Virus record (IMG/VR): IMGVR_UViG_3300027151_000220
DNA from: a virus
Lineage: Duplodnaviria > Heunggongvirae > Uroviricota > Caudoviricetes
Length of the DNA stretch: 64,000 nt
Strand: one strand, 5' to 3'
A program made the position numbers and the translations under genes. Under the pieces are notes generated by a model. It did no database searches. It saw only the letters and a list, made by a program, of their open reading frames with translations, and had not been told where the DNA came from. Below are positions 18,080 through 62,761 of this stretch, piece after piece (positions within the stretch are counted from its first letter, which is position 1; the number at the start of each line of letters is the position of its first letter).

Positions 18080-18616
18080 ATGAACAATAATACTATTTCT
18101 TGTCCTATCCCAGAAAACATTTCTCCATTATCACCTAATGGGTTTATGTTCTCTGTTCAAAAATTACCACAGATTAATTTCTTCTGTCAACAAGTGAACC
18201 TACCAGGAATAACATTAGGTGCTCCAGAGTTTGGTAACCCATTTAACGTTGCTCCAATTCCAGGCGACACACTAACGTATGATACATTAGATGTGCAGTT
18301 TTTAGTTGATGAAAGTATGGAAAATTATAGAGCCATCTATAATTGGGTTGTTGCGTTAGGATTCCCAGAGACATATGAACAATATTTAAACTTTGTGAGT
18401 ACGAATGAATTAAATCAAACATCTGAACTTGCAAAAAATTATTCTGATGCTTCTCTTGTAATATTGGGATCTAACAATAAACCAGTGCAAACTATTCAAT
18501 TTCACGATGCGTTTCCTGTTAGTATTTCTTCTCTCACTTTCCAATCAACGAATCAAGATGTGCAATACTTAGTAGGTAGTGCAACATTCCGCTACGGATA
18601 CTACAAGTTTACTTGA
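18080..18616 (+). CDS. gp19-family (tail tube fold) paralog; candidate baseplate tube/tail-tube initiator protein
   Basis: MFSVQKLPQINFFCQQVNLPGITLGAPEFGNPFNVAPIPGDTLTYDTLDVQFLVDESMENYRAIYNWV follows the same F.V....F.C....LPG......F......G....D.L.V.F..DE....W pattern as gp19 (11373). Confidence 0.5.
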   Translation: MNNNTISCPIPENISPLSPNGFMFSVQKLPQINFFCQQVNLPGITLGAPEFGNPFNVAPIPGDTLTYDTLDVQFLVDESMENYRAIYNWVVALGFPETYEQYLNFVSTNELNQTSELAKNYSDASLVILGSNNKPVQTIQFHDAFPVSISSLTFQSTNQDVQYLVGSATFRYGYYKFT

Positions 18617-47405: not shown

Positions 47406-47732
47406 ATGCGCAATTATGTTACTGTGCAAAATCGCAGTAATGGACATGATGCGATAAAGTTGACAGATGGTGCATATGAAGGTATAATTTATTCTTATGG
47501 TAAAGTTGGTTTCGAAGAAGATGAAGCCAACGATTCCTTGAAGATTAGTTTTGAATATGAGATTCTTGACTACAACGATAAGGTTATCACTGACATGAAA
47601 CCCTTTGAGAAATACATAGGTGATATCCTTCAAGATCTTATTCATGAAGGTATTGCGAATAATAATTTAACGTACACAGGTGGTGTTGATGAGAATAGAA
47701 CAGGCGATCCTATCGAACCTGATTCACAATGA
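47406..47732 (+). CDS. hypothetical protein (T4 gene 40 position)
   Basis: ATG directly after the uvsX stop. The ORF track start 47358 overlaps uvsX. Confidence 0.3.
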   Translation: MRNYVTVQNRSNGHDAIKLTDGAYEGIIYSYGKVGFEEDEANDSLKISFEYEILDYNDKVITDMKPFEKYIGDILQDLIHEGIANNNLTYTGGVDENRTGDPIEPDSQ

Positions 47733-49086
47733 GGAGTTCTGTCGTAAGGCAGTTCCTCATTTAAAGACTGAGTATTTTGCAGATCGTAAAGAAAGTGCTA
47801 TCGCTAAAATCTTAGTTGAGTTTTTTGAGCAGTATAATAAGCCAGCATCACCTGAGATTCTGGCTATTGAGATTGGCAATATCAAAGGGCTAACTGACAA
47901 AGAAGTTCCTGAGTTCCAAGAATATGCCAAACAGTTGACTAATAAAGAACCTAATGAAGAATGGTTGATTGGTCAGACTGAAAAGTTTTGTAAAGACAGG
48001 GCAGTTTATAATGCGATTCTTAAATCAATTCAAATTATCGATGGTAGGGACAAAGTGCATCAACAAGATGCGATACCTACTATTCTTAGTGAAGCACTTG
48101 GTGTTTGCTTTGATAATCATGTTGGTCATGATTACATTCAGGATGCTAATGATAGGTATGATTTTTATCACAGGGTGGAAGAGAAAATTGCTTTCGATCT
48201 TGAGATGTTCAACAAAATCACCAAAGGTGGACTCAGTAAGAAAACTTTGAACATTGCTTTGGCAGGAACAGGTGTTGGTAAATCGTTGTTTATGTGTCAC
48301 GTTGGAGCCAGTGTTCTTATGCAGGGTAAAAATGTTTTATACATAACAATGGAGATGGCTGAAGAACGTATCGCTGAACGTATCGATGCAAACTTACTTA
48401 ACCTAACCATGGATGAATTGAAAGTTGTTGATCGGGATATCTTTGATTCACGTCTACAGAAGATTGCTACAAAAACACAGGGAACACTGATTGTCAAAGA
48501 GTATCCAACTGCAGGTGCTCATGCTGGTCACTTCCGTGCTTTGTTGGAAGAGTTAAAACTTAAGAGAGAGTTTGCTCCAGATATTATCTTTATTGACTAT
48601 CTGAATATCTGTGCTTCATCTAGAATGAAACAAACCCATGGTGTAAACTCTTATACATATATTAAGGCTATCGCTGAAGAACTAAGGGGACTGGCAGTTG
48701 AATACAACGTACCTATTGTTAGTGCAACTCAAACAACTCGATCTGGATTTACAAACTCAGACCCAGGACTTGAGGACACTTCAGAATCTTTTGGACTCCC
48801 TGCGACAGCTGATTTCATGTTCGCACTTGTGAGTAATGAAGAACTTGAGCAGTTGAATCAGATTATCGTTAAGCAGTTGAAGAATCGTTACAACGACCCA
48901 AATTTCTACAAGAGGTTTGTCGTTGGTATCGATAGATCTAAAATGAAGTTATATGATGTTGAAGTTTCTGCGCAAGCAGGGCTATCAGATGTTGGAACTA
49001 AAGAAAAAGACGAACCATTGTTTGATAAATCAGATTTTGGTAAACGACTACATAGTGAGAACGAGTTTAGTGGATTTAAGTTTTAG
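47689..49086 (+). CDS. gp41: replicative DNA helicase (DnaB-like)
   Basis: N-terminus MRIEQAILSNLIHNEEFCRKAVPHLKTEYF aligns with T4 gp41 (MVEIILSHLIFDQAYFSKVWPYMDSEYF). Walker A AGTGVGKS, Walker B IIFIDYLN, arginine-finger region. Confidence 0.85.
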   Translation: MRIEQAILSNLIHNEEFCRKAVPHLKTEYFADRKESAIAKILVEFFEQYNKPASPEILAIEIGNIKGLTDKEVPEFQEYAKQLTNKEPNEEWLIGQTEKFCKDRAVYNAILKSIQIIDGRDKVHQQDAIPTILSEALGVCFDNHVGHDYIQDANDRYDFYHRVEEKIAFDLEMFNKITKGGLSKKTLNIALAGTGVGKSLFMCHVGASVLMQGKNVLYITMEMAEERIAERIDANLLNLTMDELKVVDRDIFDSRLQKIATKTQGTLIVKEYPTAGAHAGHFRALLEELKLKREFAPDIIFIDYLNICASSRMKQTHGVNSYTYIKAIAEELRGLAVEYNVPIVSATQTTRSGFTNSDPGLEDTSESFGLPATADFMFALVSNEELEQLNQIIVKQLKNRYNDPNFYKRFVVGIDRSKMKLYDVEVSAQAGLSDVGTKEKDEPLFDKSDFGKRLHSENEFSGFKF

Positions 49087-49095: not shown

Positions 49096-50397
49096 ATGAC
49101 AGTTAAAGTTATTGTCGCTGATAAAAAGATTGATTGTAAACATTTGATTGGTCAATTCGTTGACGAGAATCATTACGACCATCTTATCGAAGAAGATACT
49201 GATGTTTATATGCCAGCACCTTATGGTGAAGATCCTATCAATGAAGACAGGATTGTATTGAAGTTCCGTAAGAACTTCTTCACCAAAGAACAACAAGACC
49301 AAGCGTATGCAGGTCTTCGTGAAGCTGCAACTGAAACACAGAATCGTGGCGCAGCAGCAGGTCCACGTGGTGAGAAGTTGGGTAATCGTGAATGGGTTAC
49401 TGAGTATGAATCTGAGATGGTTGAATACTTCCTTGACCCATACTCTGGTCTTGCAGGAGATCCTGTAGAAGATATTATCAAACGCTATAAGGGTAAACCA
49501 CCTACTCCATCTAATCGCAATAATGTTTGGTCGATTGAAAGAACTAAGTCAACCAATTTTAATTTCGATCAGTGGGTTGAGAAAGTGCGTACACTTCCAC
49601 GACAAGAACAAATTAAAGAAGCAAACTTTGTTGCTGATGAATTGATTTGTGCAACCACTTACGCTAACTCAGTTTATTCTGGCATCGCAGGTTGGTTCGA
49701 TCGTTATCCTCGCATTCCTTATGGTCGTGCAACATCTTACACTGCCAAGAATCCTGAGAAGTTTGCACTTGCTTACCCATTCCTACAAACATTGTCAAAT
49801 GGTTTTAGGGATCTACTACCACAGCGTTATGAAGCACAGATGAAAGCAGCGAGACAAGTTGATCCTCGTTTCCTAGTTCCTGGAACTCCATTCACAACTG
49901 TTACTGTGAATAAAACATTCAGAACTGCTGCTCACTATGACGTTGGCGATTTAAATAGTGGTCTTTCAAATCTACTAACTTTGTCAAATGATGGACGTTA
50001 CAGTGGTGGTTATTTGATTGCACCTGAGTATCGTGTTGCTGTTAATCCACGTCCAGGCGACTTGCTATTGATTAACAACCATGATGTTATGCATGGCAAC
50101 ACTCCTATCGTTTGTGAAGAAGGTTCTGAGCGTATCAGTTTGGTTTGCTACTTCCGTGAGAAGATGCTTGAGTTGGGTTCTTGGGAATATGAGAACTGTC
50201 GTTATGACTTCGTTGAACAACGTCGCAAGAATCCTGAACATCCGATGCAACGTAAACTTTGGAATGGTGTTTCCGAAGGTATGTGGACTTCTGACGAGTG
50301 GTACGACTATTGTCGTGAAAAACTTGGAGATGAAATCCTAATTAAATATCATCCAGAATCAATGAAGTCTGGATCACTTGATGAATTTTTTGCGTAA
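49096..50397 (+). CDS. 2OG-Fe(II) dioxygenase with TET/JBP-like DSBH core (candidate nucleic-acid base hydroxylase)
   Basis: Residues ~270-380: TVTVNKTFRTAAHYDVGD (HxD) ... GGYL ... PGDLLLINNHDVMHGNTP (distal His) ... RISLVCYFR (2OG-binding Arg) in the order and spacing of TET/JBP-family enzymes. Long N-terminal domain of unknown function. Immediately upstream of a glucosyltransferase-like gene. Confidence 0.5.
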   Translation: MTVKVIVADKKIDCKHLIGQFVDENHYDHLIEEDTDVYMPAPYGEDPINEDRIVLKFRKNFFTKEQQDQAYAGLREAATETQNRGAAAGPRGEKLGNREWVTEYESEMVEYFLDPYSGLAGDPVEDIIKRYKGKPPTPSNRNNVWSIERTKSTNFNFDQWVEKVRTLPRQEQIKEANFVADELICATTYANSVYSGIAGWFDRYPRIPYGRATSYTAKNPEKFALAYPFLQTLSNGFRDLLPQRYEAQMKAARQVDPRFLVPGTPFTTVTVNKTFRTAAHYDVGDLNSGLSNLLTLSNDGRYSGGYLIAPEYRVAVNPRPGDLLLINNHDVMHGNTPIVCEEGSERISLVCYFREKMLELGSWEYENCRYDFVEQRRKNPEHPMQRKLWNGVSEGMWTSDEWYDYCREKLGDEILIKYHPESMKSGSLDEFFA

Positions 50398-50405
50398 GGT
50401 TTATT

Positions 50406-51413
50406 ATGTCACTACATGAGTTTCTAGGTGAAGAAAGGTTGTTAGAGTGGTTCTATTCAAAGAACTCTAGCAATACTGGAACTAAAATTGGTTATCGCAG
50501 AGTTTCTGGTAAGATTGGTTTGACCAACAAAGAGAATGGTGTTCGTGGAGCATGGGTAGAGAAACGTGTTGCTCTGTTCAAGAACATGCTTGATTTTGGT
50601 CATCGAATCATTCCACTATCAGAAGCAACTGATGCAACCAAAGATGATGGGTTTGAAACATTTGACACATATCAAGATTGTGATGTTCTCATGCTTGAGT
50701 TTGGTGGAACTAATTTGCAGTTCTATCAGAAGTACTGGGATAAAACTGTTGAGATGATTAAAGCACATAAGGGTCGCATCATCTTTTTGAATGACGATCC
50801 AGATCTTCCATTCCTTTGGGAGTTGTTACCTGATGAAGATTGGTCACGTTGGACTATTGCAGCCAATGCGACTGAGTGTAATGAAGTTGCAACTATCCTG
50901 AAGTGTCCTATCGGAACTACAACTGTTGATTTACCCATGGCATCTGGTATGGAGTTTGCTGAATTTCATCCAGGTAATATTGAGAAGGTGGTTTACATTG
51001 GTAGACCAAATGGCAGAACCAAATACTTCAAAGAGTTTACTTCTTCACGTTGTCTTCAAGTTGCAGGTAAAGAAGCTGAATGGGATGATTTTGAAGCACT
51101 TGAGATTCTACCAAACCCACAGCAAAGAGATCGTAGAAAGTTCTATCAACAGTTCTATGGCTGTCTAGCTGTCTATGACGATAAACATAAGAAGTCTGGT
51201 TGGAGAACTGGTCGTGCATATCATGCTCTTTATGCAGGTATTCCTGTCTGCGCACCGAAAGGTAACAATGGTTTGAATTGGTGTTTCCCTACAGATACCA
51301 AAATGGAGTTGGATAAGTTTGCGTCATTCCCAGAGGAAGTCCGTAGAAATATCTGGGAAAAGCAGAAAGCTGTTGTAGAAAAGACTGGAAAGGTTGATCC
51401 ATTAATCCTATGA
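50406..51413 (+). CDS. DNA beta-glucosyltransferase-like protein (GT-B fold)
   Basis: RIIFLNDDPDLPFLWELLPD aligns to T4 beta-gt YYLFTDIRLPFSQSWPN. Similar length (335 vs 351 aa) and C-terminal block pattern (VVYIGRPNGRT / VIYGGSFRSGQR). Confidence 0.5.
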   Translation: MSLHEFLGEERLLEWFYSKNSSNTGTKIGYRRVSGKIGLTNKENGVRGAWVEKRVALFKNMLDFGHRIIPLSEATDATKDDGFETFDTYQDCDVLMLEFGGTNLQFYQKYWDKTVEMIKAHKGRIIFLNDDPDLPFLWELLPDEDWSRWTIAANATECNEVATILKCPIGTTTVDLPMASGMEFAEFHPGNIEKVVYIGRPNGRTKYFKEFTSSRCLQVAGKEAEWDDFEALEILPNPQQRDRRKFYQQFYGCLAVYDDKHKKSGWRTGRAYHALYAGIPVCAPKGNNGLNWCFPTDTKMELDKFASFPEEVRRNIWEKQKAVVEKTGKVDPLIL

Positions 51414-51862
51414 TAGTTTCTTATGACATCGATGGGGTTCTGGCTGCTCAGCCACCGCCATCCGAAATGAAGTGGGGTAAAATGAATGGGGTTCAAAGAA
51501 AGGCTAGGAAGGACTTTTTGTACGATTGGTACGAGAATGCCGAGAAACTTATAGAGCCAGTTGAGACCCAATTTTACGCCATTTCTGCAAGAAAACGAGA
51601 GCCAAGAATACATACAATCACAAAAGACTGGCTGAATAAATATTATGGTGGAAGAGTAATTTCCTTCCATCTTCTAGATAATACCAGAACTGTTGAAAAT
51701 GTAGTCCGATTTAAGTCCGAAAGGGTGCTTGAATTGGGTATACAACGACATTATGAAGACAACAAAAAAGTACTGAGAGGGATGCGCAAACTGTTACCCC
51801 AAACTGTTGAGTTGTATTTTTGGGAAAGGGGTATGCAGGAGCCAGTTCCTTTTATCAAATAG
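51410..51862 (+). CDS. HAD-superfamily phosphatase-like protein (putative nucleotidase)
   Basis: N-terminal motif I SYDIDGVLA (DxDG[VT]). 150 aa. ATGA overlap. Confidence 0.4.
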   Translation: MIVSYDIDGVLAAQPPPSEMKWGKMNGVQRKARKDFLYDWYENAEKLIEPVETQFYAISARKREPRIHTITKDWLNKYYGGRVISFHLLDNTRTVENVVRFKSERVLELGIQRHYEDNKKVLRGMRKLLPQTVELYFWERGMQEPVPFIK

Positions 51863-51870
51863 GGCTGAAT

Positions 51871-52587
51871 ATGAAGTTCCTGGAAAATTATAACTCCGAC
51901 TGGATGGACATGCTCAATTTTTATGAGCGTCCATTTAGGGCTAAACTTGTTCCAGCAAAAGTCCTCAAGGATCTAGACAAGTATAGAAACGATTCAAAAG
52001 GTTTAGCCAACTATCTTAAAAAGTGGCGAACTAAAGTTGTATGGAGAGAAGAGAAGTCTAAGGCTAGTTGGACTGAGAAGTATGTTTGTATTGGTGGTGA
52101 GTATGATCCAGAAAATAGACAGTCACTTTTAATAATACATACAACCAAATTTGATACATTTAATTTCAATGACCAAGTTTGGGAAAAGTTTAAGTTTCGT
52201 TTATTGCAAACTTTGATGCATGAGATAATTCACTTCATGCAATATGATAGACGTGATGATACATGGAGCAATTATGTTGTTCCTTATAAGAAAGTTGGTA
52301 TAGCCAAAAAAGACGCAGAAAGAAAGTACCTTTCTGAGTTCGATGAGATACAAGCATATGCTCATTGTGTATACCTAGACTTCAAAGTACTAAGACCAAA
52401 CGTAGATATTAATACGCTACTAAATCGCTGCAAGAAATCTCGCGATTCAAAAACCCTCCACTATTTCCTCAAGACATTCGACTACGACTTCCGAAACAAT
52501 GAATCTCCAAGAAAGATCATTGACCAGATCGGTAAGTGGGATCGCAAATACGAGAAAGTTATTCGTAGACAGCGCAGACCTAAATAG
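51871..52587 (+). CDS. putative zinc metallopeptidase-like protein (HExxH)
   Basis: LMHEIIHFMQYD contains HEIIH. Basic C-terminus. Confidence 0.35.
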   Translation: MKFLENYNSDWMDMLNFYERPFRAKLVPAKVLKDLDKYRNDSKGLANYLKKWRTKVVWREEKSKASWTEKYVCIGGEYDPENRQSLLIIHTTKFDTFNFNDQVWEKFKFRLLQTLMHEIIHFMQYDRRDDTWSNYVVPYKKVGIAKKDAERKYLSEFDEIQAYAHCVYLDFKVLRPNVDINTLLNRCKKSRDSKTLHYFLKTFDYDFRNNESPRKIIDQIGKWDRKYEKVIRRQRRPK

Positions 52588-52613: not shown

Positions 52614-53417
52614 ATGGCACAAAAAGGTTTCGATTACGAGAGAAACGCACATAACGTATTGAAAGAATACAAAATCACTGTAGGTGATCCAGCTGGCGCA
52701 TCGCACGATAAACCAGATCTTTCTATCGTCACTAAAAGTATATCAACATCAACAGGATGTGAGTTAAAGATATCCCCAACTGCAGCAGGATCTCTAGTAT
52801 TAAAATACTACAACGGTAAGTGGGCATTCGCTGAAGACCTTAAAGGCGATCCTGAGAAAATCATGATGCGAGATATCGCAACTCAATACAACCTTCTCCA
52901 AGAAATGAATGTATCGGGTACTGCTGGTGAGAAGTGGAGAAGTAAAGTTCCTATTCTACAGAATGACCAAGCTGGTAGAAAAATACTTACTGGTGGTATT
53001 AAAGACAAACGCAAAGCGTATGAAATTGATATACAAAGTTATAAGGGTGAGAACGAGGTCCACATAACAGTCCCAGCTAAGGCTATCTGTGACTACTACA
53101 ATAAGAAGAAAACCTACTACATCAATGTAGGTACTCATGGGTTCTATTTAATGAATAAATTCGATCCGTTAAAATTGAATGCCAAGCTAACCAAGAAGAT
53201 CGAAGATTTCTCAAACTGCACATCAGCTAGAATCAGAACTAGATGCCAGCCAAAGGGTGGTGGCGATTACCAGTTCGTTATGACTTTAGAATTTTCAAAC
53301 CTAAGAAAATCTCTCTATAACCTAGCACCCATTACATCCCAAAATAACGTCACTATTAATAGAACAGCTTACAGCTTAACTGACAATCAGTCTCTACTTA
53401 AAGCATTCGCTTCATAG
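52614..53417 (+). CDS. hypothetical protein
   Basis: ATG 52614 with SD GGGG. 267 aa. Confidence 0.35.
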   Translation: MAQKGFDYERNAHNVLKEYKITVGDPAGASHDKPDLSIVTKSISTSTGCELKISPTAAGSLVLKYYNGKWAFAEDLKGDPEKIMMRDIATQYNLLQEMNVSGTAGEKWRSKVPILQNDQAGRKILTGGIKDKRKAYEIDIQSYKGENEVHITVPAKAICDYYNKKKTYYINVGTHGFYLMNKFDPLKLNAKLTKKIEDFSNCTSARIRTRCQPKGGGDYQFVMTLEFSNLRKSLYNLAPITSQNNVTINRTAYSLTDNQSLLKAFAS

Positions 53418-53422: not shown

Positions 53423-53430
53423 TATAAATA
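53423..53430 (+). promoter_or_regulatory. late promoter motif TATAAATA
   Basis: Exact TATAAATA 6 nt after the stop of the preceding gene. Confidence 0.35.
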
Positions 53431-53498: not shown

Positions 53499-53527
53499 TT
53501 TACTTTATTGTAAAAGTAGGGTATAAT
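53499..53527 (+). promoter_or_regulatory. early promoter TTTACT-N17-TATAAT
   Basis: atgcTTTACTttattgtaaaagtagggTATAAT. Confidence 0.5.
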
Positions 53528-53546
53528 AACTGTATAGATGGGTAAA

Positions 53547-54740
53547 ATGAAGTCGTTCCAAACATTCCTTAAAGAAGAAACCGAAGAAGAGAAACTGAAG
53601 CACATCCATCATGTAGAGGATCGCCCTCTATTCCATGGTTCTTCAGGGTTCGAACATGCTCTTGGTGCACTAAACCATGGACATGAACACATTAAAGCTG
53701 GGAAACAATCCAGCGATCTGACCATGAAATATGACGGATCGCCATCATTGGTTTTTGGAAAGCATCCAGAAACTGGAAAATTCTTTGTTGCTTCCAAGTC
53801 AGCGTTCAATAAAAACCCAAAAATCAACTATACTGCTAAGGACATTGACAAGAACCATGGTCATGCTCCAGGTCTCGCAGAAAAATTAAAGCATGCTCTA
53901 AAACATCTACCAAAGGTTGCACCTAAGCAAGGTGTATATCAGGGTGACGTTATGCACTCTGAGGGTGATGTTAAATATGATGAGAAGAAGGGAACTGCTT
54001 CTTATACACCAAATACAATTAAGTATACTGCGCATGGCGATGAAGCCAAGAAAACAGCCCAATCTAAATTTGGGTTAGTTGTTCACCAAAAATATGAGGG
54101 TAAAGATTTTGCTTCGATGAAAGCAACTCCTCATCCTGATATGAAAAGTTTTGGTCAACACAAAGATGTGCATCTTGCTGGTGCCGAGCATGATACTAGC
54201 AAAGTTAAATATACTCAAGCAGATCAGAAAAGATTCCAAAGCCACATGAATGCTGCAAAAGATATTCATGATAAACACGGCGATAAGATGTATGGTGCGA
54301 TCCATCCAGAACACAAAGGTGATGCTGGACATTTGGGAACTTACATCAATCAAACAGTTCGCAAAGATACAAAACCAAACGCAAAAGGATTCATTAAACA
54401 TATTCAGGATGTTTATGAAAAGAAAGCGTCTAAACTAAAGTCTGAGAAGGGACAAACTGCTCAGCGTAATCTTGGTTCTGGTCACGCTGCGCATGTTGAG
54501 AAAAATAAAGAGCATTATGAGAATCTATTTAAAATGCATCAGCATTTACAGCAAGGTAAAAACCTTTTAGTTAAGAATTTAAACCAGCATACTGGCGGTC
54601 TTGAGCATCATATTGGAGATAAGAAAACAGATCCTGAGGGATATGTTATAAATTATACGCACAAAGGTAAACAAGAACCATCTAAAATTGTTAATCGTGC
54701 AGAATTCAGTAAAGCCAACTTATTAAAGCCAAGAAAATGA
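53547..54740 (+). CDS. His/Lys-rich internal head protein candidate with N-terminal capsid-targeting sequence
   Basis: Start at the second ATG (MKSFQTFLKEETEEE), downstream of the -10 element. The leader matches the T4 CTS MKTYQEFIAE. 25% His+Lys. Confidence 0.5.
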   Translation: MKSFQTFLKEETEEEKLKHIHHVEDRPLFHGSSGFEHALGALNHGHEHIKAGKQSSDLTMKYDGSPSLVFGKHPETGKFFVASKSAFNKNPKINYTAKDIDKNHGHAPGLAEKLKHALKHLPKVAPKQGVYQGDVMHSEGDVKYDEKKGTASYTPNTIKYTAHGDEAKKTAQSKFGLVVHQKYEGKDFASMKATPHPDMKSFGQHKDVHLAGAEHDTSKVKYTQADQKRFQSHMNAAKDIHDKHGDKMYGAIHPEHKGDAGHLGTYINQTVRKDTKPNAKGFIKHIQDVYEKKASKLKSEKGQTAQRNLGSGHAAHVEKNKEHYENLFKMHQHLQQGKNLLVKNLNQHTGGLEHHIGDKKTDPEGYVINYTHKGKQEPSKIVNRAEFSKANLLKPRK

Positions 54741-55351
54741 AGACATTTAAATCTTATATTGTAGAATCAGAAAAAGACGTTCATCATGTTCTTGCTTTTG
54801 GTCGAATGAATCCTCCAACTGCTGGTCATGAGAAACTCGTAACCCATATGCATGATACTGCCAAGAAACATAATGCAGAACATACATTGGTATTATCAGG
54901 TTCGCATGCAACTAAAGACGGATCTAATCCATTACCACCTGATGTTAAAAAGAAACATGCAGAGAGAGCATTTCCTGGAACCAATGTTAAGGTAGCTGAT
55001 AAAGAACATCCTACTGTTCTTCATCATGCTGCTGAGTTGCACAAAAAAGGTGTTACTCATTTACACTTTGCTGGTGGCGATGATCGTAAACCAATGCATG
55101 AATTGATTAAAAAGTATAATGGAAAAGAAGGTCCACATGGACATTACAATTTCAAGAGTATAAAGTTCCACAATGCAGGTAAACGTGATCCAAATGCAAA
55201 AGGAACTGAAGGTATTTCTGGAACTAAACTTCGTGGTCACGCTGCAGCTGGTGAACAGAAAAAGTTTGAATCTCATCTATCGTCACAGATGAAACCAGAA
55301 CATAAAACAGAATTGTATCACGACTTACGTAAACATATGGGTGTAAAGTAA
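54737..55351 (+). CDS. CTS-tagged nucleotidyltransferase (cytidylyltransferase/NMNAT-like fold)
   Basis: MKTFKSYIVESE leader. HVLAFGRMNPPTAGHEKLV (GxFxxxHxGH motif) and GISGTKLRG (ISxTxxR motif) at canonical spacing (~150 aa). Confidence 0.55.
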   Translation: MKTFKSYIVESEKDVHHVLAFGRMNPPTAGHEKLVTHMHDTAKKHNAEHTLVLSGSHATKDGSNPLPPDVKKKHAERAFPGTNVKVADKEHPTVLHHAAELHKKGVTHLHFAGGDDRKPMHELIKKYNGKEGPHGHYNFKSIKFHNAGKRDPNAKGTEGISGTKLRGHAAAGEQKKFESHLSSQMKPEHKTELYHDLRKHMGVK

Positions 55352-56397
55352 TGAAAAATTTTAAATCGTTCTTAGCAGAAGAACAATACTACGAAGAATT
55401 GCTTATCGAAGCAGCTGATGATGCTTCCAAAGAGGGTGGTGTTTCCAATAACACTAAAGGTGTGTTGCACGAACTATTAGTCGGCAAACATTTAAATGGT
55501 GGTAAGCATCTAGAGAAACACAAGAATGAAAACGATGAAACACCTGAGCAAGCACACGAGAGATTAAAGAAACAAATTCACCCTAAAGATTATGATAAGA
55601 TCGCTAAAAATGCAGAGAGTGCTGCCAATCATATTAAGGCACATATCGATTCTACTCACAAAGGGCATAAGATTTCAGCAGTGCATTGGACTTCAAAACC
55701 TGGAGATACAGAAAAGGTAACTGGTCACAAAGCAACACAGAAAGAAGATTCTTCTGACGTTTATGTAACTACCAAGCATCCAAAGACAGGTAAAGAACAT
55801 CATCATGGCGTAAGTTTAAAAGTCAGCGATAAGTCCAGTAAAAACATTCCGTCTTCAAGTCTTGGTATGGAATCTGGTGGTTCAAAAGCCAGACAGCATT
55901 ATAAAGATCATCAAGACGCAATACTTGCTGCTCATCCTAAATTAAAAGGTAAGAATAAAGACCAGCGTAAAGAAATTGCAAAAGCAGATCCTAAGTTGCA
56001 TGATGATATTAAGAAACGCAACAAAGAACTTTTACATAAAGTTGCTCACGATCATGCTGCTGAGTTGCAGCACCACTTAGACAACAATAACCACGACCAT
56101 GTAGTTAAACATATTCGTGAAGTTCTACATGCACATAAGACTCCTGCAGAAGAAAAGGGGCACAGTTTTATTAAGCATACAACATATCAAACTGCTAAGG
56201 GTGTTCAACACCATACAAGTAAGCCAAGCGAAGACCACGAACATATCCTTAAAGACCATAAGAATATTACAGTTAAATCCAGTGGTGGCTCTGTTCACTT
56301 CTATCACAATGGTAAGAAGTTTGCTTCTCAAGCCCATAAGTTCGACTCTCAATCTGATCCATTAAGTTCATTAAAGAGTGCAGGTAAAGCTGTATGA
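55351..56397 (+). CDS. His/Lys-rich internal head protein candidate with CTS
   Basis: MKNFKSFLAEEQYYEELLIEA leader. Extremely His-rich (HHH, HxxxH repeats). Confidence 0.5.
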   Translation: MKNFKSFLAEEQYYEELLIEAADDASKEGGVSNNTKGVLHELLVGKHLNGGKHLEKHKNENDETPEQAHERLKKQIHPKDYDKIAKNAESAANHIKAHIDSTHKGHKISAVHWTSKPGDTEKVTGHKATQKEDSSDVYVTTKHPKTGKEHHHGVSLKVSDKSSKNIPSSSLGMESGGSKARQHYKDHQDAILAAHPKLKGKNKDQRKEIAKADPKLHDDIKKRNKELLHKVAHDHAAELQHHLDNNNHDHVVKHIREVLHAHKTPAEEKGHSFIKHTTYQTAKGVQHHTSKPSEDHEHILKDHKNITVKSSGGSVHFYHNGKKFASQAHKFDSQSDPLSSLKSAGKAV

Positions 56398-56741
56398 AAA
56401 AGTTAATACTGATTCTTGCCGTAGTTTCTTTATCTGCATGTTCTGTTATCCTACCAAGACCACACGACCCAGAAATGTTTGGTCGTTTAGTTGATACCAA
56501 AATAGCAGTTGATAAATTAGAATGTGGTAATCAGTTAATGTTCCAAAACGCAGACGAGTATATCGAGAGATTAAAAGTTTATGCTGTTTTAAGATCTGAC
56601 CCACAAGCAGAAGCTATTGGAAAATTGCAAGAAGCTATCAAGAAAGCAGGAGAATCCAAGAACAAAGTATTCTGCGAATCTGTTGTTAAAACAAATAAAG
56701 TTAGAATCGATGTAATAGTAGATGCTTGGAAAGGAAGATAA
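56394..56741 (+). CDS. small lipoprotein
   Basis: MKKLILILAVVSLSAC: signal peptide with LSAC lipobox. 115 aa. Confidence 0.5.
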   Translation: MKKLILILAVVSLSACSVILPRPHDPEMFGRLVDTKIAVDKLECGNQLMFQNADEYIERLKVYAVLRSDPQAEAIGKLQEAIKKAGESKNKVFCESVVKTNKVRIDVIVDAWKGR

Positions 56742-56929
56742 TGACTACATTTACAACTGAAGATAGATTAGTAGCAGAAGCACCTTATCATCCAGGATAT
56801 GAATCTATAGGATTAGAAGAAATTAAGAATCCAATTATGGATGAGGTAAATGAATATCGTGCATATAAAGCACGACATATGAAAACTGCCAAAGGTATTG
56901 TTGAATTTTTAAGGGGTCCAAGATGCTAG
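56726..56929 (+). CDS. hypothetical small protein
   Basis: 67-aa ORF. Confidence 0.25.
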   Translation: MERKIMTTFTTEDRLVAEAPYHPGYESIGLEEIKNPIMDEVNEYRAYKARHMKTAKGIVEFLRGPRC

Positions 56930-57153
56930 AACAATTAAGAGAAGCAGCAGGAATGGGTGGTCCAGCAGCAGCATTGGCGAACGAGTTATTGGTTATTCGT
57001 GAAAATTATGAACAGGGACAGCTATCCAAAGAAGAATATGAGTATTTGGTCAATGAAATCGCTGAAATTCGTGCCCAACAGGAGTTAGCCACAGACGAGG
57101 TAGCCTGTCGTTGGATCGTTGCAGCAGCAAAAGCGTTAATTAGCGTGGCATAA
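56923..57153 (+). CDS. hypothetical small protein
   Basis: 76-aa ORF. Confidence 0.25.
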   Translation: MLEQLREAAGMGGPAAALANELLVIRENYEQGQLSKEEYEYLVNEIAEIRAQQELATDEVACRWIVAAAKALISVA

Positions 57154-57196
57154 TTGCCTAAATAAATGAATAGAAATTACTTTATAGATGGATTAA

Positions 57197-59077
57197 ATGA
57201 AAGATTACAGACAACTAATCAAAGAACTACCGTCCAGTACTATTGTTTGTGCAGTTAGCGAGTTTAACCCTCCTACAATCGGTCACGAACTACTAGTCAA
57301 GACAGTCAAAAAACTGGCAGAACAAAAAAATTCTGACCACGTAATCTATACATCCCCATCTAAGAACAGTATTATCCAAGAAGATAAGAAAGAACATTAT
57401 CTAAATTTAATGTTCCCAAATACTTCTTTTAAAAGTATCACATCTTTATCGGAAACGATTAAAGATTTGTCGCAGAAGTATAAACATGTTGTATTGGTTG
57501 TCGGCAGCGAACAATCAGCCAGCTTGAAAAAAATTGTTAAAGAATCAAGTTCCATTCAGATTATTTCTACTTTAGATAAAGACCCAGATGTAAATTCTTC
57601 AAAGATGAAATCTTTTGCTACTAAAGGAATTTTTGAAGAGTTTAAGAAAAAGTTGCCAAGTTCTGTTCGTGAGTTAGATGGTCGTCGTTTGATGAACGAT
57701 GTCCGTATTACGATGGGTTTAGAACCAATTAAAGAGCAGCTTAATTTGGTCAAAGATACTGTACGTGAACAATATTTCCGTGGTGAAATTTTTAATGTCG
57801 GAGATATCGTTGAATGTAGTGGAGAAAAATTAGCAGTAGTTAAACGTGGCTCAAACCATTTACTACTTAAAGAAGCTAGTGGCAAATTAGTTTCTAAATG
57901 GATACAAGACGTAATACCAACGGAAGAAAAAGAAATGAACGAAGACTTAACAGATAAGACTTTAAAAACCAACGATAAGATTAAAGTTGCTCGAGTAATC
58001 GCAACTATGCTTGGTGTGGATAAAGTTGAGGCAACTGCAAACGCTGAGTTGCTTGTTAATACTGCACTACGCAGAATCAAATCCAAGACTTTGAATCCAG
58101 AAGCATTGAACATTGTTAATAAGATGTTACAACTGGCTAACCAAGTTGGTATTCAATATGACACAAATTTAATTCCACAGAAACTTACTCAAGAAGAAAC
58201 TTCTTTGGATGAAGCAACTCCATATTATAATAAACCTTCTTTCATCAAGAGAATGTCTCGCATGGCGAAACAAGAAAGACAGGAACGTGAGAAAAAAGAA
58301 AAAGAACAGAAGAAAGATGTAAAAGAGAATCACTGCAAACCTGGACATAGTTTAGTTGAACCAGGAGCATCTGAAACTTTACGCAAACAAAAAATTAAAC
58401 AACAATTGGGTGAAGTAGCTCCAGTTGATGTGAGCAAAGTTAATCATGCTGGCGATGAACCACATGATGAAGAATGGGAAGATACTGGTATTTGTCCAGT
58501 ACACAACGTAAAGCATGGCGAAGAAGGATGTGAACACACTAGAGATGTGTTAGAAAAAGAATTAGATCTTACTGATGAAGAAATCGATCACATTATTAAT
58601 ACTACACCAGATGATGAATTCATCGATGAGTATGAAGATGATGAGTTTGGTATTATCGATCCAGATACTGGCGAAGAATATGACGATGAAGAATGTGCTT
58701 GCACAATGCAAGAGCAAGCAATTCTGGAAGTTCTTTCAAGAACAGAACGTATGCGTGCAAGAGTTCGTTTTGCAAAATCTAAGGCTAAGCGTGAACGTAA
58801 AGCATCCATCGCATTAAGAACTCGTGCCACCACTAAGACTACAAACAAACGTGCACGTCGTCTTGCAATTAAGTTAATGAAGAAACGTCTACTCCGTGGT
58901 CGTGACTATAACAAACTTTCAGTTGGAGAGAAAGAGCGTGTAGAAAGAGTTATTCAAAGACGCAAACAAGTTATCGGTCGTGTAGCAATGAAACTTGTTC
59001 CACGTATTCGTGCTGTTGAGAAAGCAAGATTATCACATACAAAATATACTAAAGGATCTGGAAATGTTGCGTTTTAA
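57197..59077 (+). CDS. large CTS-tagged protein with N-terminal HxGH nucleotidyltransferase-like domain and acidic/basic C-terminal half
   Basis: MKDYRQLIKEL leader. IVCAVSEFNPPTIGHELLV is paralogous to 54737 (FGRMNPPTAGHEKLV). C-terminal Cys/His cluster (CPVHNVKHGEEGCEH) and Arg/Lys-rich tail. Confidence 0.5.
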   Translation: MKDYRQLIKELPSSTIVCAVSEFNPPTIGHELLVKTVKKLAEQKNSDHVIYTSPSKNSIIQEDKKEHYLNLMFPNTSFKSITSLSETIKDLSQKYKHVVLVVGSEQSASLKKIVKESSSIQIISTLDKDPDVNSSKMKSFATKGIFEEFKKKLPSSVRELDGRRLMNDVRITMGLEPIKEQLNLVKDTVREQYFRGEIFNVGDIVECSGEKLAVVKRGSNHLLLKEASGKLVSKWIQDVIPTEEKEMNEDLTDKTLKTNDKIKVARVIATMLGVDKVEATANAELLVNTALRRIKSKTLNPEALNIVNKMLQLANQVGIQYDTNLIPQKLTQEETSLDEATPYYNKPSFIKRMSRMAKQERQEREKKEKEQKKDVKENHCKPGHSLVEPGASETLRKQKIKQQLGEVAPVDVSKVNHAGDEPHDEEWEDTGICPVHNVKHGEEGCEHTRDVLEKELDLTDEEIDHIINTTPDDEFIDEYEDDEFGIIDPDTGEEYDDEECACTMQEQAILEVLSRTERMRARVRFAKSKAKRERKASIALRTRATTKTTNKRARRLAIKLMKKRLLRGRDYNKLSVGEKERVERVIQRRKQVIGRVAMKLVPRIRAVEKARLSHTKYTKGSGNVAF

Positions 59078-59561
59078 AGATTACCTTACAGAAGATAATG
59101 CCAAACATGATGAGGCAGAAGAGCATTTATCAAAAGCCAATGACGCTGAATCTAAAGGTGATATGAAGTCATTTCATGCACACATGGCGGATCATCATGA
59201 TGCTATGTCCGAGTGGCATGAGTCGAAGGGTCGTTCGGCATCAGCAGACAAGCATGCTGAAAAGGCAGATGAACACCATGAAAAATCTTTAACTGTTAAA
59301 GAAGCAGCTGTTGATGCAAAAGGATTTAAATCTTCAACTGGTGGCTTGACACAAAAGGGTCGAGATCATTATAACAGAACAGAGGGTGGCAATCTTAAAG
59401 CACCTGTAACAACACCACCATCAAAATTAAAAGCTGGTAGCAAAGCTGCCAATCGTCGCAAGTCTTTCTGTGCCAGAATGTCTGGCGTAGAAGGACCAAT
59501 GAAGAAGCCAAATGGCGAGCCAACTCGTAAAGCATTGGCATTAAGAAAATGGAATTGTTAA
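59064..59561 (+). CDS. His-rich internal head protein candidate with CTS
   Basis: ATG 59064 (ATGTTGCGTTTTAA overlap with the upstream stop) gives MLRFKDYLTEDNAKHDEAEE, a leader like the other CTS proteins. The track start 58995 is an over-extension. Confidence 0.45.
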   Translation: MLRFKDYLTEDNAKHDEAEEHLSKANDAESKGDMKSFHAHMADHHDAMSEWHESKGRSASADKHAEKADEHHEKSLTVKEAAVDAKGFKSSTGGLTQKGRDHYNRTEGGNLKAPVTTPPSKLKAGSKAANRRKSFCARMSGVEGPMKKPNGEPTRKALALRKWNC

Positions 59562-59562: not shown

Positions 59563-60009
59563 ATGAATGAAACTTTAGTTACTGCGAAAATTTGCTTAGC
59601 AAATACATTCTTAATGTATTTTAAGGCACAATCTTATCATTGGAACTTGGAAGGGATGTTCTTTCCACAGTATCATGAATTTTTTGGCAATCTTTATGAA
59701 GAAATTTATGGAGCAGTTGATCCAATGGCAGAAGAGATGCGTGCGCTTGATGAGTATGCTCCAAAGAATATAGAAGAAATGTATAAAGTTACAACTATCG
59801 ATAATGATAATAACGCTAGTAATGTAACTGAAATGCTGCAAGATTTACAAGAAGCCAACAATAAAACCATCGAGAGCCTAAATAAACTGTTCGATCTATT
59901 ATCGAAAGACAAAGAGCAGGGTTTTGCTGATTTTATTGCTGGAAGATTGGATGCTCACAAGAAACATGGTTGGATGATACGTTCCAGCTTAAAGAAAATT
60001 GGAGAATAA
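59563..60009 (+). CDS. Dps-like ferritin-superfamily protein
   Basis: LANTFLMYFKAQSYHWNLEGMFFPQYHEFFGNLYEEIYGAVDPMAEEMRALDEYAP matches the Dps helix A/B ferroxidase-site pattern (..HWNV.G..F..LH..FEE.Y.E....D..AER...LG). Confidence 0.6.
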   Translation: MNETLVTAKICLANTFLMYFKAQSYHWNLEGMFFPQYHEFFGNLYEEIYGAVDPMAEEMRALDEYAPKNIEEMYKVTTIDNDNNASNVTEMLQDLQEANNKTIESLNKLFDLLSKDKEQGFADFIAGRLDAHKKHGWMIRSSLKKIGE

Positions 60010-60012: not shown

Positions 60013-62442
60013 ATGGCAAAAAAGAAATTTGCAGATTTAGCCAGTGCTTGCTGGAAAGGCTATAAAGCAGTTGGTTTAAAGGATAAGAATGGAAGAAAAG
60101 TTCCTAACTGTGTTCCTGAAGAAACAGAAGTAGCTGACGATATTATCGAAGCTAGAGTGTTTGCAACTTATCAAGATGCGAAAGCTGCTGCAGCACCTGG
60201 ACAAAAACCTAAGTTGAACCCATCAAATAACAAGTATATTTTAGTTTCTGAAGAAACTATTGACGAAGAAGATGATTACTCTAGACGTCATACTGTAGTT
60301 GCTCATGTTTCTGATAATACTGGAACTCCTGCTGATGGTGAGAAGCGTGAAGTTATAAAGAAAGCACTATCTATATTGGCAGCAACTCCAAAGCATGCAG
60401 AGCGTGCTGCAAGAAAACATTTCTCTGACAAAGGATATAAAGTTCATAAAATCTCAGCGAAATTAAAAGAAGAAGTTGAGTTAGAAGAAGCCACAGTAAG
60501 CAAGAAAGATTATTCTTGGGGTAAGATGATGACTGTTCATCACGGCAAAGATATTTCTTATCCTCTACATCCAGAACACCAAAAGATTGTTAAGGGTTTA
60601 CGACCAAGTGGTGAACATTCGAAGGCTATGTATAAAGATGAAACTGGTAATCAAGTTCATGTAACACGTGAAGATGACAAAGTTCATTTTGTTTCTCACA
60701 GAACATCAGGCAGTAAGAAAACTACTGTTGATTACAAACACTTTGATGAATCAGTTCCAGCAAAGAACACTGACATTGCCGATAAGAGTTATTTAAAAGA
60801 TATGGGTAAGAAACCATCTATCAAATCAGATTTGAAAAACTTTAAGAACTTCTTGACAGGTAAGAAAGAAACCAACGAAGAAGTTGAAATAGAAGAAGCT
60901 AGTCAAACTTGGAATCATGCTAAGGTCAAAAAGAATACAGTTCACGGTACATATCATTCATCTTCAATGGATGTTTATGGTAATATGACTGCGCATAAAA
61001 AAGGTTTCAAAACTTCTAAAGAAGCTGACGATCACGGAAAGAGTATTACTGGTAAACGCACTAAAGCGTATCATCCTGGAGAAAGAACTCGTGCAGTTTA
61101 TGTTGATGAGTCAGTTGAACAAGTGGTGGAAGCAGCACCATTCAAAACTAAAGAAGATGCTGTGAAGTATGCTAAAGAAAAAGTTAAAACCCATCGTGAC
61201 AATCTTGATGGTATTGAGATTTATGCTCATAGTGGTGGCTTTGATGTTAACCACACTATGAACGCTAGTGGTCGCAACTCTCTACAAAAGATTAAAGCAA
61301 AACATATTGGAACTATCTACAAAGAAGAAGTTGAAATGGAAGAAGGTTACTACCAAAAGCCAGCATCTGCTTATCGTCGTAAAGGTGACGAGATTGGTGG
61401 TGGTTCTTCTAAGAATAGTGTTCCATTTGATGGTCCATATACAAAGACTAAACCTGTTAAAAACTCAGATGGCACTACTCAATCACCAATGAGTCGTGCA
61501 CGTGAACTTGCTAAACAAGCTATTGCTGCAAAGAGTAAAATCAAAGAAGACGTTGTTGATGAACAAGCTCCAGTTGCTCCAGTTCCAGATAAGAAGTATA
61601 TCAAAGGAACACCTGAGAATAAAGCATACAAAGCAACTAAGAAACCAATCAATGGTCATCCAACTAATAAGGTGTCCTGCGAAGAAGTTGAACAGATCGA
61701 TGAATTAGATCAGAAAACTTTAAAGTCATATGTTAGAAAGAATTTAAAGTCTGGCGATACTAGTGATAAAAGAGATGCGGGGTTGTACACGGCAACCAAT
61801 AAGATTGCCAAAAAACAAGCAACATCAACTCTCGATAAAAAAGTTAAAACCCTTGGTCAGACAAGACCTAGTGAAGTGAAAAACCGATATGAATATGAAG
61901 CATCTCGTTCTGAATTGAAGAACAGAGGTATTCATCATTTCGCAGGTCGCAGAACTAGAACTGAAGAAGTCGAACAAGTTGACGAGAAAGCACCTCCAGG
62001 ATTTGAGGGTACTGTTAAAGCAATGAAGAAGCATAAAGAAATTGATAATCCTTTTGCTCTTGCATGGTATATGAAGAATAAGGGTATGAAGAGTCATAAA
62101 GAAGAAGTGGAACAATTTGACGATAACGGAGAGGTAATAACTAACATGAAAACATATAAAGAGTTTGTAGAATCTCTTGATGAGGTTAAAATGGCTGACT
62201 TACCAGTACGTAAAGTGAGTGGTCGTGGTTATGGTACTGAGTATTATAAGGGTGAAGCCGAAGCAGACAAAAAAGGTTACGACGATGAAGACAAGCCAGC
62301 TAAACCAGCTGCAGAGAAACGTGGTCGTGGTCGTCCAGCAGGTTCTACATCTGGCGCACGTCAGAAGGGAACTATTGCTAAGAGAAAAGGTAGTGGTGTC
62401 GAAATGACAGGCTATCCAGTACACTTGCCTAATTTCAAATAA
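60013..62442 (+). CDS. 809-aa Lys-rich protein built of ~6 tandem divergent repeats each starting EEVE(x)(x)EE/DE
   Basis: Long ORF with SD AAGGAGAA... Repeat anchors at 60469, 60877, 61324, 61681, 61962 and 62101. 18% Lys. Confidence 0.55.
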   Translation: MAKKKFADLASACWKGYKAVGLKDKNGRKVPNCVPEETEVADDIIEARVFATYQDAKAAAAPGQKPKLNPSNNKYILVSEETIDEEDDYSRRHTVVAHVSDNTGTPADGEKREVIKKALSILAATPKHAERAARKHFSDKGYKVHKISAKLKEEVELEEATVSKKDYSWGKMMTVHHGKDISYPLHPEHQKIVKGLRPSGEHSKAMYKDETGNQVHVTREDDKVHFVSHRTSGSKKTTVDYKHFDESVPAKNTDIADKSYLKDMGKKPSIKSDLKNFKNFLTGKKETNEEVEIEEASQTWNHAKVKKNTVHGTYHSSSMDVYGNMTAHKKGFKTSKEADDHGKSITGKRTKAYHPGERTRAVYVDESVEQVVEAAPFKTKEDAVKYAKEKVKTHRDNLDGIEIYAHSGGFDVNHTMNASGRNSLQKIKAKHIGTIYKEEVEMEEGYYQKPASAYRRKGDEIGGGSSKNSVPFDGPYTKTKPVKNSDGTTQSPMSRARELAKQAIAAKSKIKEDVVDEQAPVAPVPDKKYIKGTPENKAYKATKKPINGHPTNKVSCEEVEQIDELDQKTLKSYVRKNLKSGDTSDKRDAGLYTATNKIAKKQATSTLDKKVKTLGQTRPSEVKNRYEYEASRSELKNRGIHHFAGRRTRTEEVEQVDEKAPPGFEGTVKAMKKHKEIDNPFALAWYMKNKGMKSHKEEVEQFDDNGEVITNMKTYKEFVESLDEVKMADLPVRKVSGRGYGTEYYKGEAEADKKGYDDEDKPAKPAAEKRGRGRPAGSTSGARQKGTIAKRKGSGVEMTGYPVHLPNFK
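60469..62140. repeat. intragenic tandem repeats (GAAGAAGTTGAA... anchors) within the 809-aa ORF
   Basis: Six copies of gaagaagt(t/c/g)ga(a/g) followed by an acidic hexapeptide-coding segment, with unit lengths 139-447 nt. Confidence 0.5.
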
Positions 62443-62452: not shown

Positions 62453-62722
62453 ATGGCACTATGGGGAAAAACAGACGCAGCTGGCAGCAAGCCACAATAT
62501 CTAAACACTGCTGGTAAAGCAGCTGTTGAGGGTATCTCTGCAGCAGAAGCAGCAGTCGCAGCAAACAAGGCTAAAGGTGTTGCTCATGCAGGCTGGGTAA
62601 CAACTAATACATACACTGATGCACAAGGTGTAACACGCAACAAGACTGAAGTTCTAGTTGCTATGTCATCAATCACTGGTGATGACAACACTGATGATAC
62701 AACTATCGGTGCTGATGCCTAA
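62453..62722 (+). CDS. hypothetical Ala-rich small protein
   Basis: 89-aa ORF with SD AAGGAGAA. Confidence 0.35.
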   Translation: MALWGKTDAAGSKPQYLNTAGKAAVEGISAAEAAVAANKAKGVAHAGWVTTNTYTDAQGVTRNKTEVLVAMSSITGDDNTDDTTIGADA

Positions 62723-62736: not shown

Positions 62737-62761
62737 GAGGGGAGATTCCTCCCCTCCTTTT
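62737..62761 (+). terminator. rho-independent terminator
   Basis: GAGGGGAG-attc-CTCCCCTC followed by CTTTT. Confidence 0.7.

Follow-up and report, generated by a model that had tools for sequence, protein, structure and literature searches.

Why should five genes of one phage, most of which encode unrelated proteins, begin with almost the same ten amino acids? This question is raised by positions 53547 to 59561 of a 64,000-nucleotide stretch of viral DNA (IMG/VR record IMGVR_UViG_3300027151_000220), which is called the window in the following. The genes, named here after their first positions, are 53547, 54737, 55351, 57197, and 59064. An earlier note on this DNA had described them as a cluster of consecutive, paralogous, His/Lys-rich proteins, whose N-termini are close analogues of the capsid-targeting sequence (CTS) of T4 internal proteins. 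Our analysis makes it likely that the ten N-terminal residues are a putative capsid-targeting propeptide of the T4 internal-protein type, and that the cargo is packaged and injected.

A decapeptide leader shared by five genes

The window (64 kb) was searched in all six reading frames with the pattern M..[FYW]..[FYLIMW][LIVM].E. The pattern matches exactly the five gene starts for which a shared leader had been claimed; the only other match is a spurious off-frame open reading frame (ORF) of 40 residues. The leaders read MKSFQTFLKE (53547), MKTFKSYIVE (54737), MKNFKSFLAE (55351), MKDYRQLIKE (57197), and MLRFKDYLTE (59064), and their consensus is M-[K/L]-x-F-x-x-[F/Y]-[L/I]-x-E. Based on the amino-acid frequencies of the window, the chance of a match is 4e-4 per gene; about 0.04 matches are expected per 100 genes, and the probability of finding at least five is approximately 1e-9. 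In addition, homologues of three of the five genes were used to derive a position-specific scoring matrix (PSSM). The leader of 59064, which is independent of the PSSM training, reached 20.3 bits. The leader of 57197 scored -2.1, which makes it the weakest of the five; it still ranks sixth among 1333 candidate starts (mean -44, standard deviation 12.7).

In T4, truncation and suppressor work on the internal protein IPIII (Black) demonstrated that the first ten residues, MKTYQEFIAE, suffice for incorporation into the head; targeting is mainly set by residues 4 and 7, and processing by residues 8 and 10 (PMC9026906). All five leaders agree at these determinant positions: they possess F or Y at position 4, F, Y or L at position 7, L or I at position 8, and E at position 10, which bears out the comparison with the T4 CTS. 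Residues 8 to 10 are LKE, IVE, LAE, IKE, and LTE (from 53547 to 59064), i.e. the L/I-x-E consensus of gp21-type cleavage sites occurs in each leader.

The leader is conserved in hundreds of environmental homologues. In the homologue families, positions 4, 7, 8, and 10 are near-invariant and positions 2, 3, 5, 6, and 9 are variable. For DUF6267, the family of 53547, the leader is present in 110 of 120 homologues, with F4, F/Y7, L/I8, and E10 invariant there. Because nearly all of these homologues begin right at the leader, and because a motif in the 5' untranslated region (UTR), TATAGATGG, is common to 53547 and 57197, the start at 53547 is favoured over the in-frame upstream ATG at 53538. The short cytidylyltransferase family represented by 54737 conserves the leader family-wide, with the same fixed and variable positions. 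In the 55351 family, the leader pattern was found in 77 of 120 members, and E10 is invariant where the leader is present.

A shared N-terminus might also be a feature of expression, such as an A/T-rich codon ramp, a translation-initiation context or an RNA-level element, and not a protein signal. MK- starts are indeed common in A/T-rich phages, and the two operon-initial leader genes share the sequence TATAGATGG(G/A)T(A/T)AA right before the ATG (53533-53546 and 57183-57196). However, three of the five leader genes are operon-internal, have overlapping stop/start codons and lack a shared UTR; moreover, the highly expressed capsid, sheath, and scaffold genes of the window do without the leader. 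The codons of the five leaders vary freely, whereas residues 4, 7, 8, and 10 are fixed across hundreds of homologues. The difference in codons indicates that conservation and selection act at the peptide level and do not reflect a DNA repeat, which makes an expression feature a very improbable explanation.

The leader has the character of a separable module. An acidic linker, which varies in length, connects it to the domain, and in AlphaFold2 models the predicted local distance difference test (pLDDT) score of the leader and linker region is below 50 (residues 1-15 of the 53547 model, residues 7-19 of the 55351 model). The cyanophage homologues of DUF6267 that were checked (Syn9 gp183, S-PM2p138) have no leader and begin directly with the domain. 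The same is true for the DUF6321 proteins of podoviruses, which comprise 72-93 residues and lack a leader, and for the cytidylyltransferases of jumbo phages, which begin at the Rossmann strand. In the whole genome of Methylophilales phage Melnitz (141 kb), the pattern used above matches two genes only, both located in the orthologous module. The DUF6267 and nuclease-like genes of Melnitz (genes 15 and 16) carry the leader. A third Melnitz gene (MZ577098.1, 21306-21701), which encodes a hypothetical protein of 131 residues a few kb past the module, starts with MKNFKNHIAEE and scores 12.2 bits with the PSSM; its product is a candidate for a further cargo protein.

Composition and the question of common descent

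A BLASTP comparison among the five proteins identified only 54737 and 57197 as homologous (5e-10); the other pairs share the leader alone. The term paralogous is thus adequate for these two proteins and has to be withdrawn for the other three, which have nothing but the leader in common. The description as His/Lys-rich needs a similar restriction. The His content is 9.1% for 53547, 11.8% for 54737, 11.5% for 55351, 6.7% for 59064, and 2.2% for 57197, at a background of 1.3%. Lys accounts for about 15% of the residues in 53547, 54737, and 55351 and for less in 59064; its value is 6.7% in other genes. Therefore, the label suits 53547, 54737, and 55351, suits 59064 less well, and does not suit 57197.

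A paralogous family of His/Lys-rich metal-binding proteins, which arose by tandem duplication and inherited its N-terminus, would account for the adjacency of the genes, for the high His and Lys content of three neighbours, and for the true paralogy of 54737 and 57197. It is at odds with the lack of detectable homology past the leader in the other pairs, with differing Pfam families, and with differing folds that are confidently predicted (ligase-like versus endonuclease-like). In addition, the orthologues in Melnitz, Pelagibacter phage HTVC008M, Stenotrophomonas phage DLP_6, Syn9, and S-SM1 contain only 1-5% His. Since the enrichment is missing from these orthologues, it appears to be a compositional shift at the level of the lineage and not an ancestral trait of the families. 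We consider such a common descent scarcely credible. His richness as the mark of a metal-binding family was set aside, as the proteins have predicted enzyme folds and the enrichment is lineage-specific; metal binding as a property of the protein surface is conceivable. The Lys content of about 15% would fit a role as in T4, where lysines of internal proteins contact DNA phosphate (PMC3012670).

Head-assembly genes of the phage

According to PHROG profiles, the phage of the window is a T4-like myovirus. The profiles identified a large terminase (7516-9096), a tail sheath protein (9179-11338), and a portal protein (11992-13566), as well as the components which a T4-type CTS requires. These are a gp21-like prohead (head maturation) protease (14992-15645, + strand; PHROG 207, 2e-75), a gp22-like scaffold (15688-16680, + strand; PHROG 237, 3e-83), and a gp23-like major capsid protein (16704-17975, + strand; PHROG 138, 1e-158). 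The protease is presumed to be the enzyme that processes the leader, and the scaffold is the presumed docking partner. The N-terminus of the protease itself reads MKLIRE↓VTE↓S (arrows: putative gp21-type sites). The capsid protein possesses a T4-like L-F-E↓A site at residue 51, which is aligned with the cleavage region of T4 gp23. Its sequence is 63-64% identical to those of Melnitz, HTVC008M, and cyanomyoviruses (Kyanoviridae), which are the closest ones. At the nucleotide level, a comparison with isolate phages gave only patches of 100 nt, and no close cultured relative was found among them. The region recurs with identical gene calls on many independent metagenome contigs.

Virion data from relatives and a cytoplasmic alternative

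Experimental support for packaging comes from orthologues of 57197. By BLASTP, 57197 matches Syn9 gp184 (1.5e-23) and proteins of Melnitz (1e-32) and HTVC008M (2e-26); on the basis of these comparisons it is an orthologue of the cyanophage "cytidyltransferase" T4-GC190 and a paralogue of 54737. Sullivan et al. (2010) list T4-GC190 among the core genes of cyanophages and among the proteins whose presence in virions was determined by experiment. In the part of Table S8 of that study considered here, S-SM1 virions yielded peptide counts of 25 for GC190 and 18 for the portal protein; the neighbours GC1453, GC1454, and GC1455 gave 12, 10, and 7 counts, and GC425 gave 17. The S-CREM2 paper reports the detection of the cytidylyltransferase gp154 in virions by mass spectrometry and states that such enzymes are frequent in cyanophage virion proteomes. 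The orthologues carry the leader: it reads MKKFSAFLNE↓A in SSM1_190, MKNFSSFLTE↓A in S-CREM2 gp154, and MKKFSAFLSE↓A in Syn9 gp184. The leaderless S-SM1 DUF6267 protein (GC71) has no entry in the rows of Table S8 that were examined.

Several observations weigh against packaging by means of the leader. The match of the 57197 leader is weak, and the Melnitz, HTVC008M, and DLP_6 orthologues have degenerate leaders. Residue 11 is often E, D or L in the proteins of the window, in place of the A, S or G typical of T4 sites. With 23-70 kDa, the cargo enzymes are bigger than the classical T4 internal proteins. The virion data were obtained for two cyanophages, S-SM1 and S-CREM2, outside the close uncultured lineage of this phage. 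The S-CREM2 authors caution that abundant cytoplasmic proteins may co-purify with virions. In the portion of the S-SM1 data considered, the leaderless neighbours SSM1_188 and SSM1_191 are listed as detected in virions too; hence, the leader is not the sole route into the particle, or some of the detection is carry-over. Finally, a sigma-70-type promoter-like site (TTTACT-17-TATAAT, 53499-53527, + strand), which was located by pattern search directly 5' of 53547, points to early expression; a TATAAATA motif is, however, also present there.

Some of these points would be expected if the leader were a docking or oligomerisation tag for a cytoplasmic complex, e.g. a replication or DNA-modification factory, unrelated to the head, so that virion detection would be due to carry-over. 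The leader genes are in fact located in a replication region and not in the head module: upstream of them are UvsX (46337-47404), a gp41-type helicase (47680-49086), and a Tet/JBP cassette (49096-52587). The early promoter-like site and the predicted action of all enzymes on nucleic acids are also compatible with such a complex, as is the caveat on contamination. On the other hand, the agreement with the mapped CTS residues of T4 holds position for position and includes the protease determinants L/I8 and E10; a plain interaction helix needs no conserved Glu10. A fixed L-x-E↓A site ahead of the 55351 domain, the S-SM1 peptide counts of the cytidylyltransferase, which exceed those of the portal in the rows cited above, and the presence of the known virion protein GC425 as a neighbour of the module also speak against it. 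We therefore regard a cytoplasmic tag as distinctly unlikely and conclude that the leader-tagged proteins probably become packaged in the capsid and pass into the host together with the DNA.

Expression signals

Our statements on promoters are based on a recurring extended motif found by pattern search; a generic scan of the region for sigma-70 promoters and terminators performed no better than on shuffled sequence. The motif, TT(G/T)ACA-17-(G)TATAAT with an A-rich upstream part, occurs in intergenic positions at 18613, 23901, 28718, 30121, 37879, 40334, 46288, and 53499, and these sites are probably early promoters of the phage. The TATAAATA motif at 53423 lies 5' of the first leader gene, and a late-promoter-like CTAAATA motif at 57158 lies 5' of 57197. 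By a rough composition-based estimate, the counts of both motifs are near chance, and the late-promoter calls are weak. As an early-type site and the motifs TATAAATA and CTAAATA are all present, the timing of expression is not decidable from sequence. In the 5' UTR motif of 57197, an embedded ATG opens a mini-ORF of two codons (ATG GAT TAA).

Predicted functions of the leader proteins

The NCBIfam profiles gave no match for any protein of the leader module. The first protein (53547-54740, + strand, 397 residues, 15.1% Lys) consists of the leader, an acidic linker, and a DUF6267 domain (Pfam, 2e-96). This family comprises more than 2700 database proteins at E <= 1e-5. In the openly searchable literature, i.e. 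outside subscription journals, no paper mentions it. Within a K-x-D-G motif, the residues K61, D63, and G64 do not vary between this lineage and Melnitz, DLP_6, HTVC008M, Syn9, and S-PM2. AlphaFold modelled the protein with high confidence (pLDDT 89.7) outside residues 1-15. Foldseek and sequence-profile searches with 53547 gave no significant match. We read the model as a ligase-like covalent nucleotidyltransferase fold of the ATP-dependent RNA/DNA ligase superfamily, in which KxDG would be motif I with the catalytic lysine. Further conserved elements are QGD (132-134), PEG(F/Y)V (363-367), and K380/R384; judged by eye, these are candidates for the ligase motifs III, IV, and V. A canonical DNA ligase is encoded separately (39172-40467).

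The genes 54737 (54737-55351, + strand, 204 residues) and 57197 (57197-59077, + strand, 626 residues) had been interpreted as nucleotidyltransferases, and profile evidence supports this: both match the PHROG 3041 "cytidyltransferase" (1e-48 and 8e-33), and they probably belong to the HIGH superfamily. The protein 54737 consists of the leader and a short cytidylyltransferase-like HIGH-motif domain. In 57197, a weak leader is followed by the HIGH-motif domain and a long basic C-terminal region; the cytidyltransferase match falls into the N-terminal 250 residues. With the Pfam profile PF01467, 54737 and 57197 reach 13.9 and 15.9 bits, which is below the cut-off of 21, although precomputed PF01467 assignments exist for many homologues of 54737 with 55-60% identity. 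A comparison of the 54737 family profile with the PDB gave 3gmi (MJ0951) as the best match (8.5e-4), with both signature motifs aligned; PPAT matched weakly. The ISGTKLR signature is present in 54737, as stated in the earlier note, and aligns to GISGTKIRE of 3gmi; 57197 has only a looser NSSKMKS. The motif reported as HxGH has to be corrected to TxGH (NPPTAGH in 54737, NPPTIGH in 57197), with Thr in place of the first His. Across the family, T28, G30, and H31 do not vary; the jumbo-phage homologue G17 has HRGH.

The third protein (55351-56397, + strand, 348 residues) has no match in Pfam, PHROG or NCBIfam and no homologue among 50,697 isolate phage genomes; 360 homologues were found in environmental data. 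It consists of the leader, an acidic linker, a second L-I-E↓A site (residues 18-21), and a domain whose model is confident (pLDDT 90.7) and resembles the PD-(D/E)XK endonuclease fold of the MspI/HinP1I type. In the catalytic region, the motif S135-D136-x18-S155-x-K157 is invariant in the family, with a Ser at the position expected to be acidic. This replacement makes the endonuclease activity of 55351 uncertain. HinP1I and MspI have Q or N at this catalytic position. The related enzyme HhaI has SD-x11-EAK (PMC7026639). Of 102 homologues, 92 possess a second [LIVMF]-x-E site ahead of the domain, mostly followed by A, S or G; in 60 of these it is located exactly 11 residues ahead of the folded domain, although the length of the whole extension varies between 13 and 52 residues. 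This L-x-E↓A site looks like a conserved protease site and recalls the longer propeptide of IPI. A cognate methyltransferase was not detected among the Pfam-scanned proteins of the window; the scan covered a part of the ORFs, and the window covers a part of the genome.

Just upstream of the module, the region 52614-53417 encodes a leaderless protein of 267 residues with a classical nuclease-like motif, PD-x14-ELK. A profile comparison with the 55351 family aligned the D...xLK motifs at a non-significant E of 0.1; between the 55351 family and Melnitz gp15 the leader alone aligned. Due to the lack of significance in these comparisons, homology among these nuclease-like proteins is not established. 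Positional counterparts of 52614-53417 exist in Melnitz (where the leader is present), HTVC008M, and S-SM1 (GC1453, detected in virions), and have PKTD...S-x-K in common.

The last leader protein (59064-59561, + strand, 165 residues) combines the leader with a His/Glu/Asp-rich spacer and a basic C-terminal DUF6321 domain (Pfam, 1.2e-25, residues 89-163). In isolate phages, all tblastn matches span only the part that begins between residues ~51 and 92 and ends between residues 161 and 165. In the podovirus HTVC022P, a DUF6321 gene is located between the scaffold and capsid genes.

Neighbouring genes

The five genes are not consecutive, as had been assumed: three small leaderless ORFs (56394-56741, 56741-56929, and 56923-57153, all + strand) lie between 55351 and 57197, and the same gene calls are found on independent metagenome contigs. 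The first of these has a lipoprotein-type signal, MKKLILILAVVSLSAC, and a weak match to an NCBIfam lipoprotein; its product may be a membrane or periplasmic factor, e.g. a superinfection-exclusion protein. Directly 3' of the DUF6321 gene, 59563-60009 encodes a ferritin/Dps-like protein (Pfam, 8e-20) without a leader.

A possibly related neighbour outside of 53547-59561 is the Lys-rich mosaic protein encoded by 60013-62442 (+ strand, 809 residues). Six acidic linkers, EEVE-x-x-(E/D), separate its modules, and a motif L/I/M/V-x-E occurs in each of the first five. Leader-like elements are found internally: LKNFKNFL at residue 274 and MKTYKEFVES at residue 712. A search of 1.8 billion representatives gave 2377 relatives of the modules; the boundaries are at the linkers, and the modules are shuffled. 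In 26 of 150 relatives, a conserved element similar to the T4 CTS, (M/S/K)K(S/T)Y(K)(E/Q)F(V/L), lies within the protein (27 occurrences); its distance from the C-terminus is usually about 95 residues. In one relative (P0382), modules of the 60013 type are fused to an enzyme of the 57197 type. It is possible but speculative that the 60013-62442 product is a head-delivered, protease-processed polyprotein. The small product of the subsequent gene (62453-62722, + strand, 89 residues) is homologous to the N-terminal part of T4-GC425, the "S-layer domain / head protein" of cyanophages (BLASTP to S-SM1 SSM1_195, 2e-6). This gene constitutes the downstream edge of the module, and a strong intrinsic terminator (62737-62760) follows it.

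On the other side, between the gp41-type helicase and the module of presumed virion proteins, the gene of a Tet/JBP-type 2OG-Fe dioxygenase (Pfam, 3e-24) precedes three uncharacterised genes for proteins of 335, 150, and 238 residues, the last of which has a HEIIH motif. The region 49096-52587 is probably a cassette for cytosine hypermodification.

Proposed route from prohead to host

If the leader functions as in T4, it would anchor each protein to the gp22-like scaffold core while the prohead is being built, and the gp21-like prohead protease would cut after Glu10. In the 55351 family, the protease would make an additional cut at the second L-x-E↓A site, immediately N-terminal to the folded domain. 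The mature Lys-rich proteins would then remain alongside the DNA inside the head and pass into the host cell together with the genome. The packaged set would consist of unrelated enzymes and binders of nucleic acids: DUF6267 with its ligase-like fold, two nucleotidyltransferases of the HIGH type, 55351 with its MspI/HinP1I-like endonuclease fold, and a basic DUF6321 protein. For these, nucleic-acid sealing or repair, nucleotidyl transfer to some acceptor, and DNA cleavage or binding are possibilities. We infer the docking, the cleavage, the injection, and an early role of the enzymes in host takeover, genome or RNA repair or anti-defence.

In view of the Tet/JBP cassette immediately upstream and of an M.HhaI-like methylase in Melnitz, a packaged endonuclease might conceivably leave modified phage DNA intact. 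A more far-reaching version of this scheme, which we consider rather unlikely as a whole, can be formulated as follows. The CTS of T4 would be a portable and ancient code, by means of which a widespread uncultured aquatic lineage co-injects an enzyme toolkit. The endonuclease would attack unmodified DNA of the host or of rivals, with the phage's own DNA being shielded by Tet/JBP-dependent hypermodification; the DUF6267 protein, in this version similar to RNA ligases, and the nucleotidyltransferases would repair or modify RNA or DNA before phage gene expression; and the 60013-62442 product would be a head-delivered polyprotein cut by the prohead protease.

Comparison with known systems

One of the closest parallels is the polymorphic locus of the T4 internal proteins IPI, IPII, and IPIII. 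Here as there, a decapeptide leader precedes unrelated Lys-rich proteins encoded side by side, and gp21-like and gp22-like genes are present. In contrast to the small basic T4 cargo of 8-21 kDa, the cargo of the window consists mostly of large enzymes with recognisable folds. Moreover, the locus lies in the replication region beside the gp41 helicase and belongs to a phage only distantly related to T4. The T-even internal proteins are a diverse set with the CTS as the shared element (PMC3012670); consequently, the earlier statement that this combination is not a described T4 feature went too far. Textbooks already describe varied cargo that has a CTS in common, and cytidylyltransferases in cyanophage virions were reported in 2010 and 2023.

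The proposal also resembles T4 Alt, a packaged ADP-ribosyltransferase: a head-carried enzyme is processed by the prohead protease, injected, and acts before phage gene expression. Alt differs in chemistry and fold; it is processed at both termini (PMC9026906), and its substrate is known. T4-GC190 (SSM1_190, Syn9 gp184, S-CREM2 gp154) shares orthology with 57197, the leader, and the detection in virions, but its cyanophage neighbours (DUF6267 and others) lack the leader, which in the lineage of the window has spread to at least four protein families. Sullivan et al. (2010) and the S-CREM2 paper list the cytidylyltransferase as structural or virion-associated and do not mention a targeting signal.

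In giant phages such as phiKZ and SPN3US, and in the case of the Dar proteins of P1, multiple enzymes or effectors enter the head via the assembly core, and many of them are trimmed by a gp21-related protease. In giant phages, however, long propeptides take the place of a common decapeptide, and cleavage occurs at a different motif, (S/A/G)-x-E. There is no sequence relationship between these ejection proteins and the leader proteins of the window.

The CTS, the internal proteins, and Alt of T4 are thus known already, as is the virion association of the cyanophage cytidylyltransferase. In a full-text search of the literature, with the scope given above for DUF6267, no paper linking a capsid-targeting sequence to cyanophages was found; the only paper that contains both terms, "capsid targeting sequence" and "cyanophage", is a T4 review, and it draws no link between them. 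The same literature gave no account of a T4-type CTS in aquatic T4-like phages, of its spread to at least four unrelated families in one lineage, of a ligase-like DUF6267, of the MspI/HinP1I-like fold of the 55351 family or of the lineage-specific His enrichment.

Implications

For two protein families, our results are first functional leads: DUF6267 may be ligase-like, and the 55351 family may be endonuclease-like. If the proteins are indeed packaged, an oddity that has persisted for 15 years, the presence of a "cytidyltransferase" in cyanophage virions, would be explained, and a sequence rule would be at hand for predicting the injected proteins of uncultured phages. The leader also suggests itself as a ready-made tag for loading foreign proteins into the heads of cyanophages and pelagiphages. 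If it works as in T4, head targeting by a decapeptide would be conserved throughout the T4 superfamily, in coliphages as well as in phages that abound in aquatic habitats. This raises the idea that these phages deliver enzymes together with their DNA, beyond small inhibitors.

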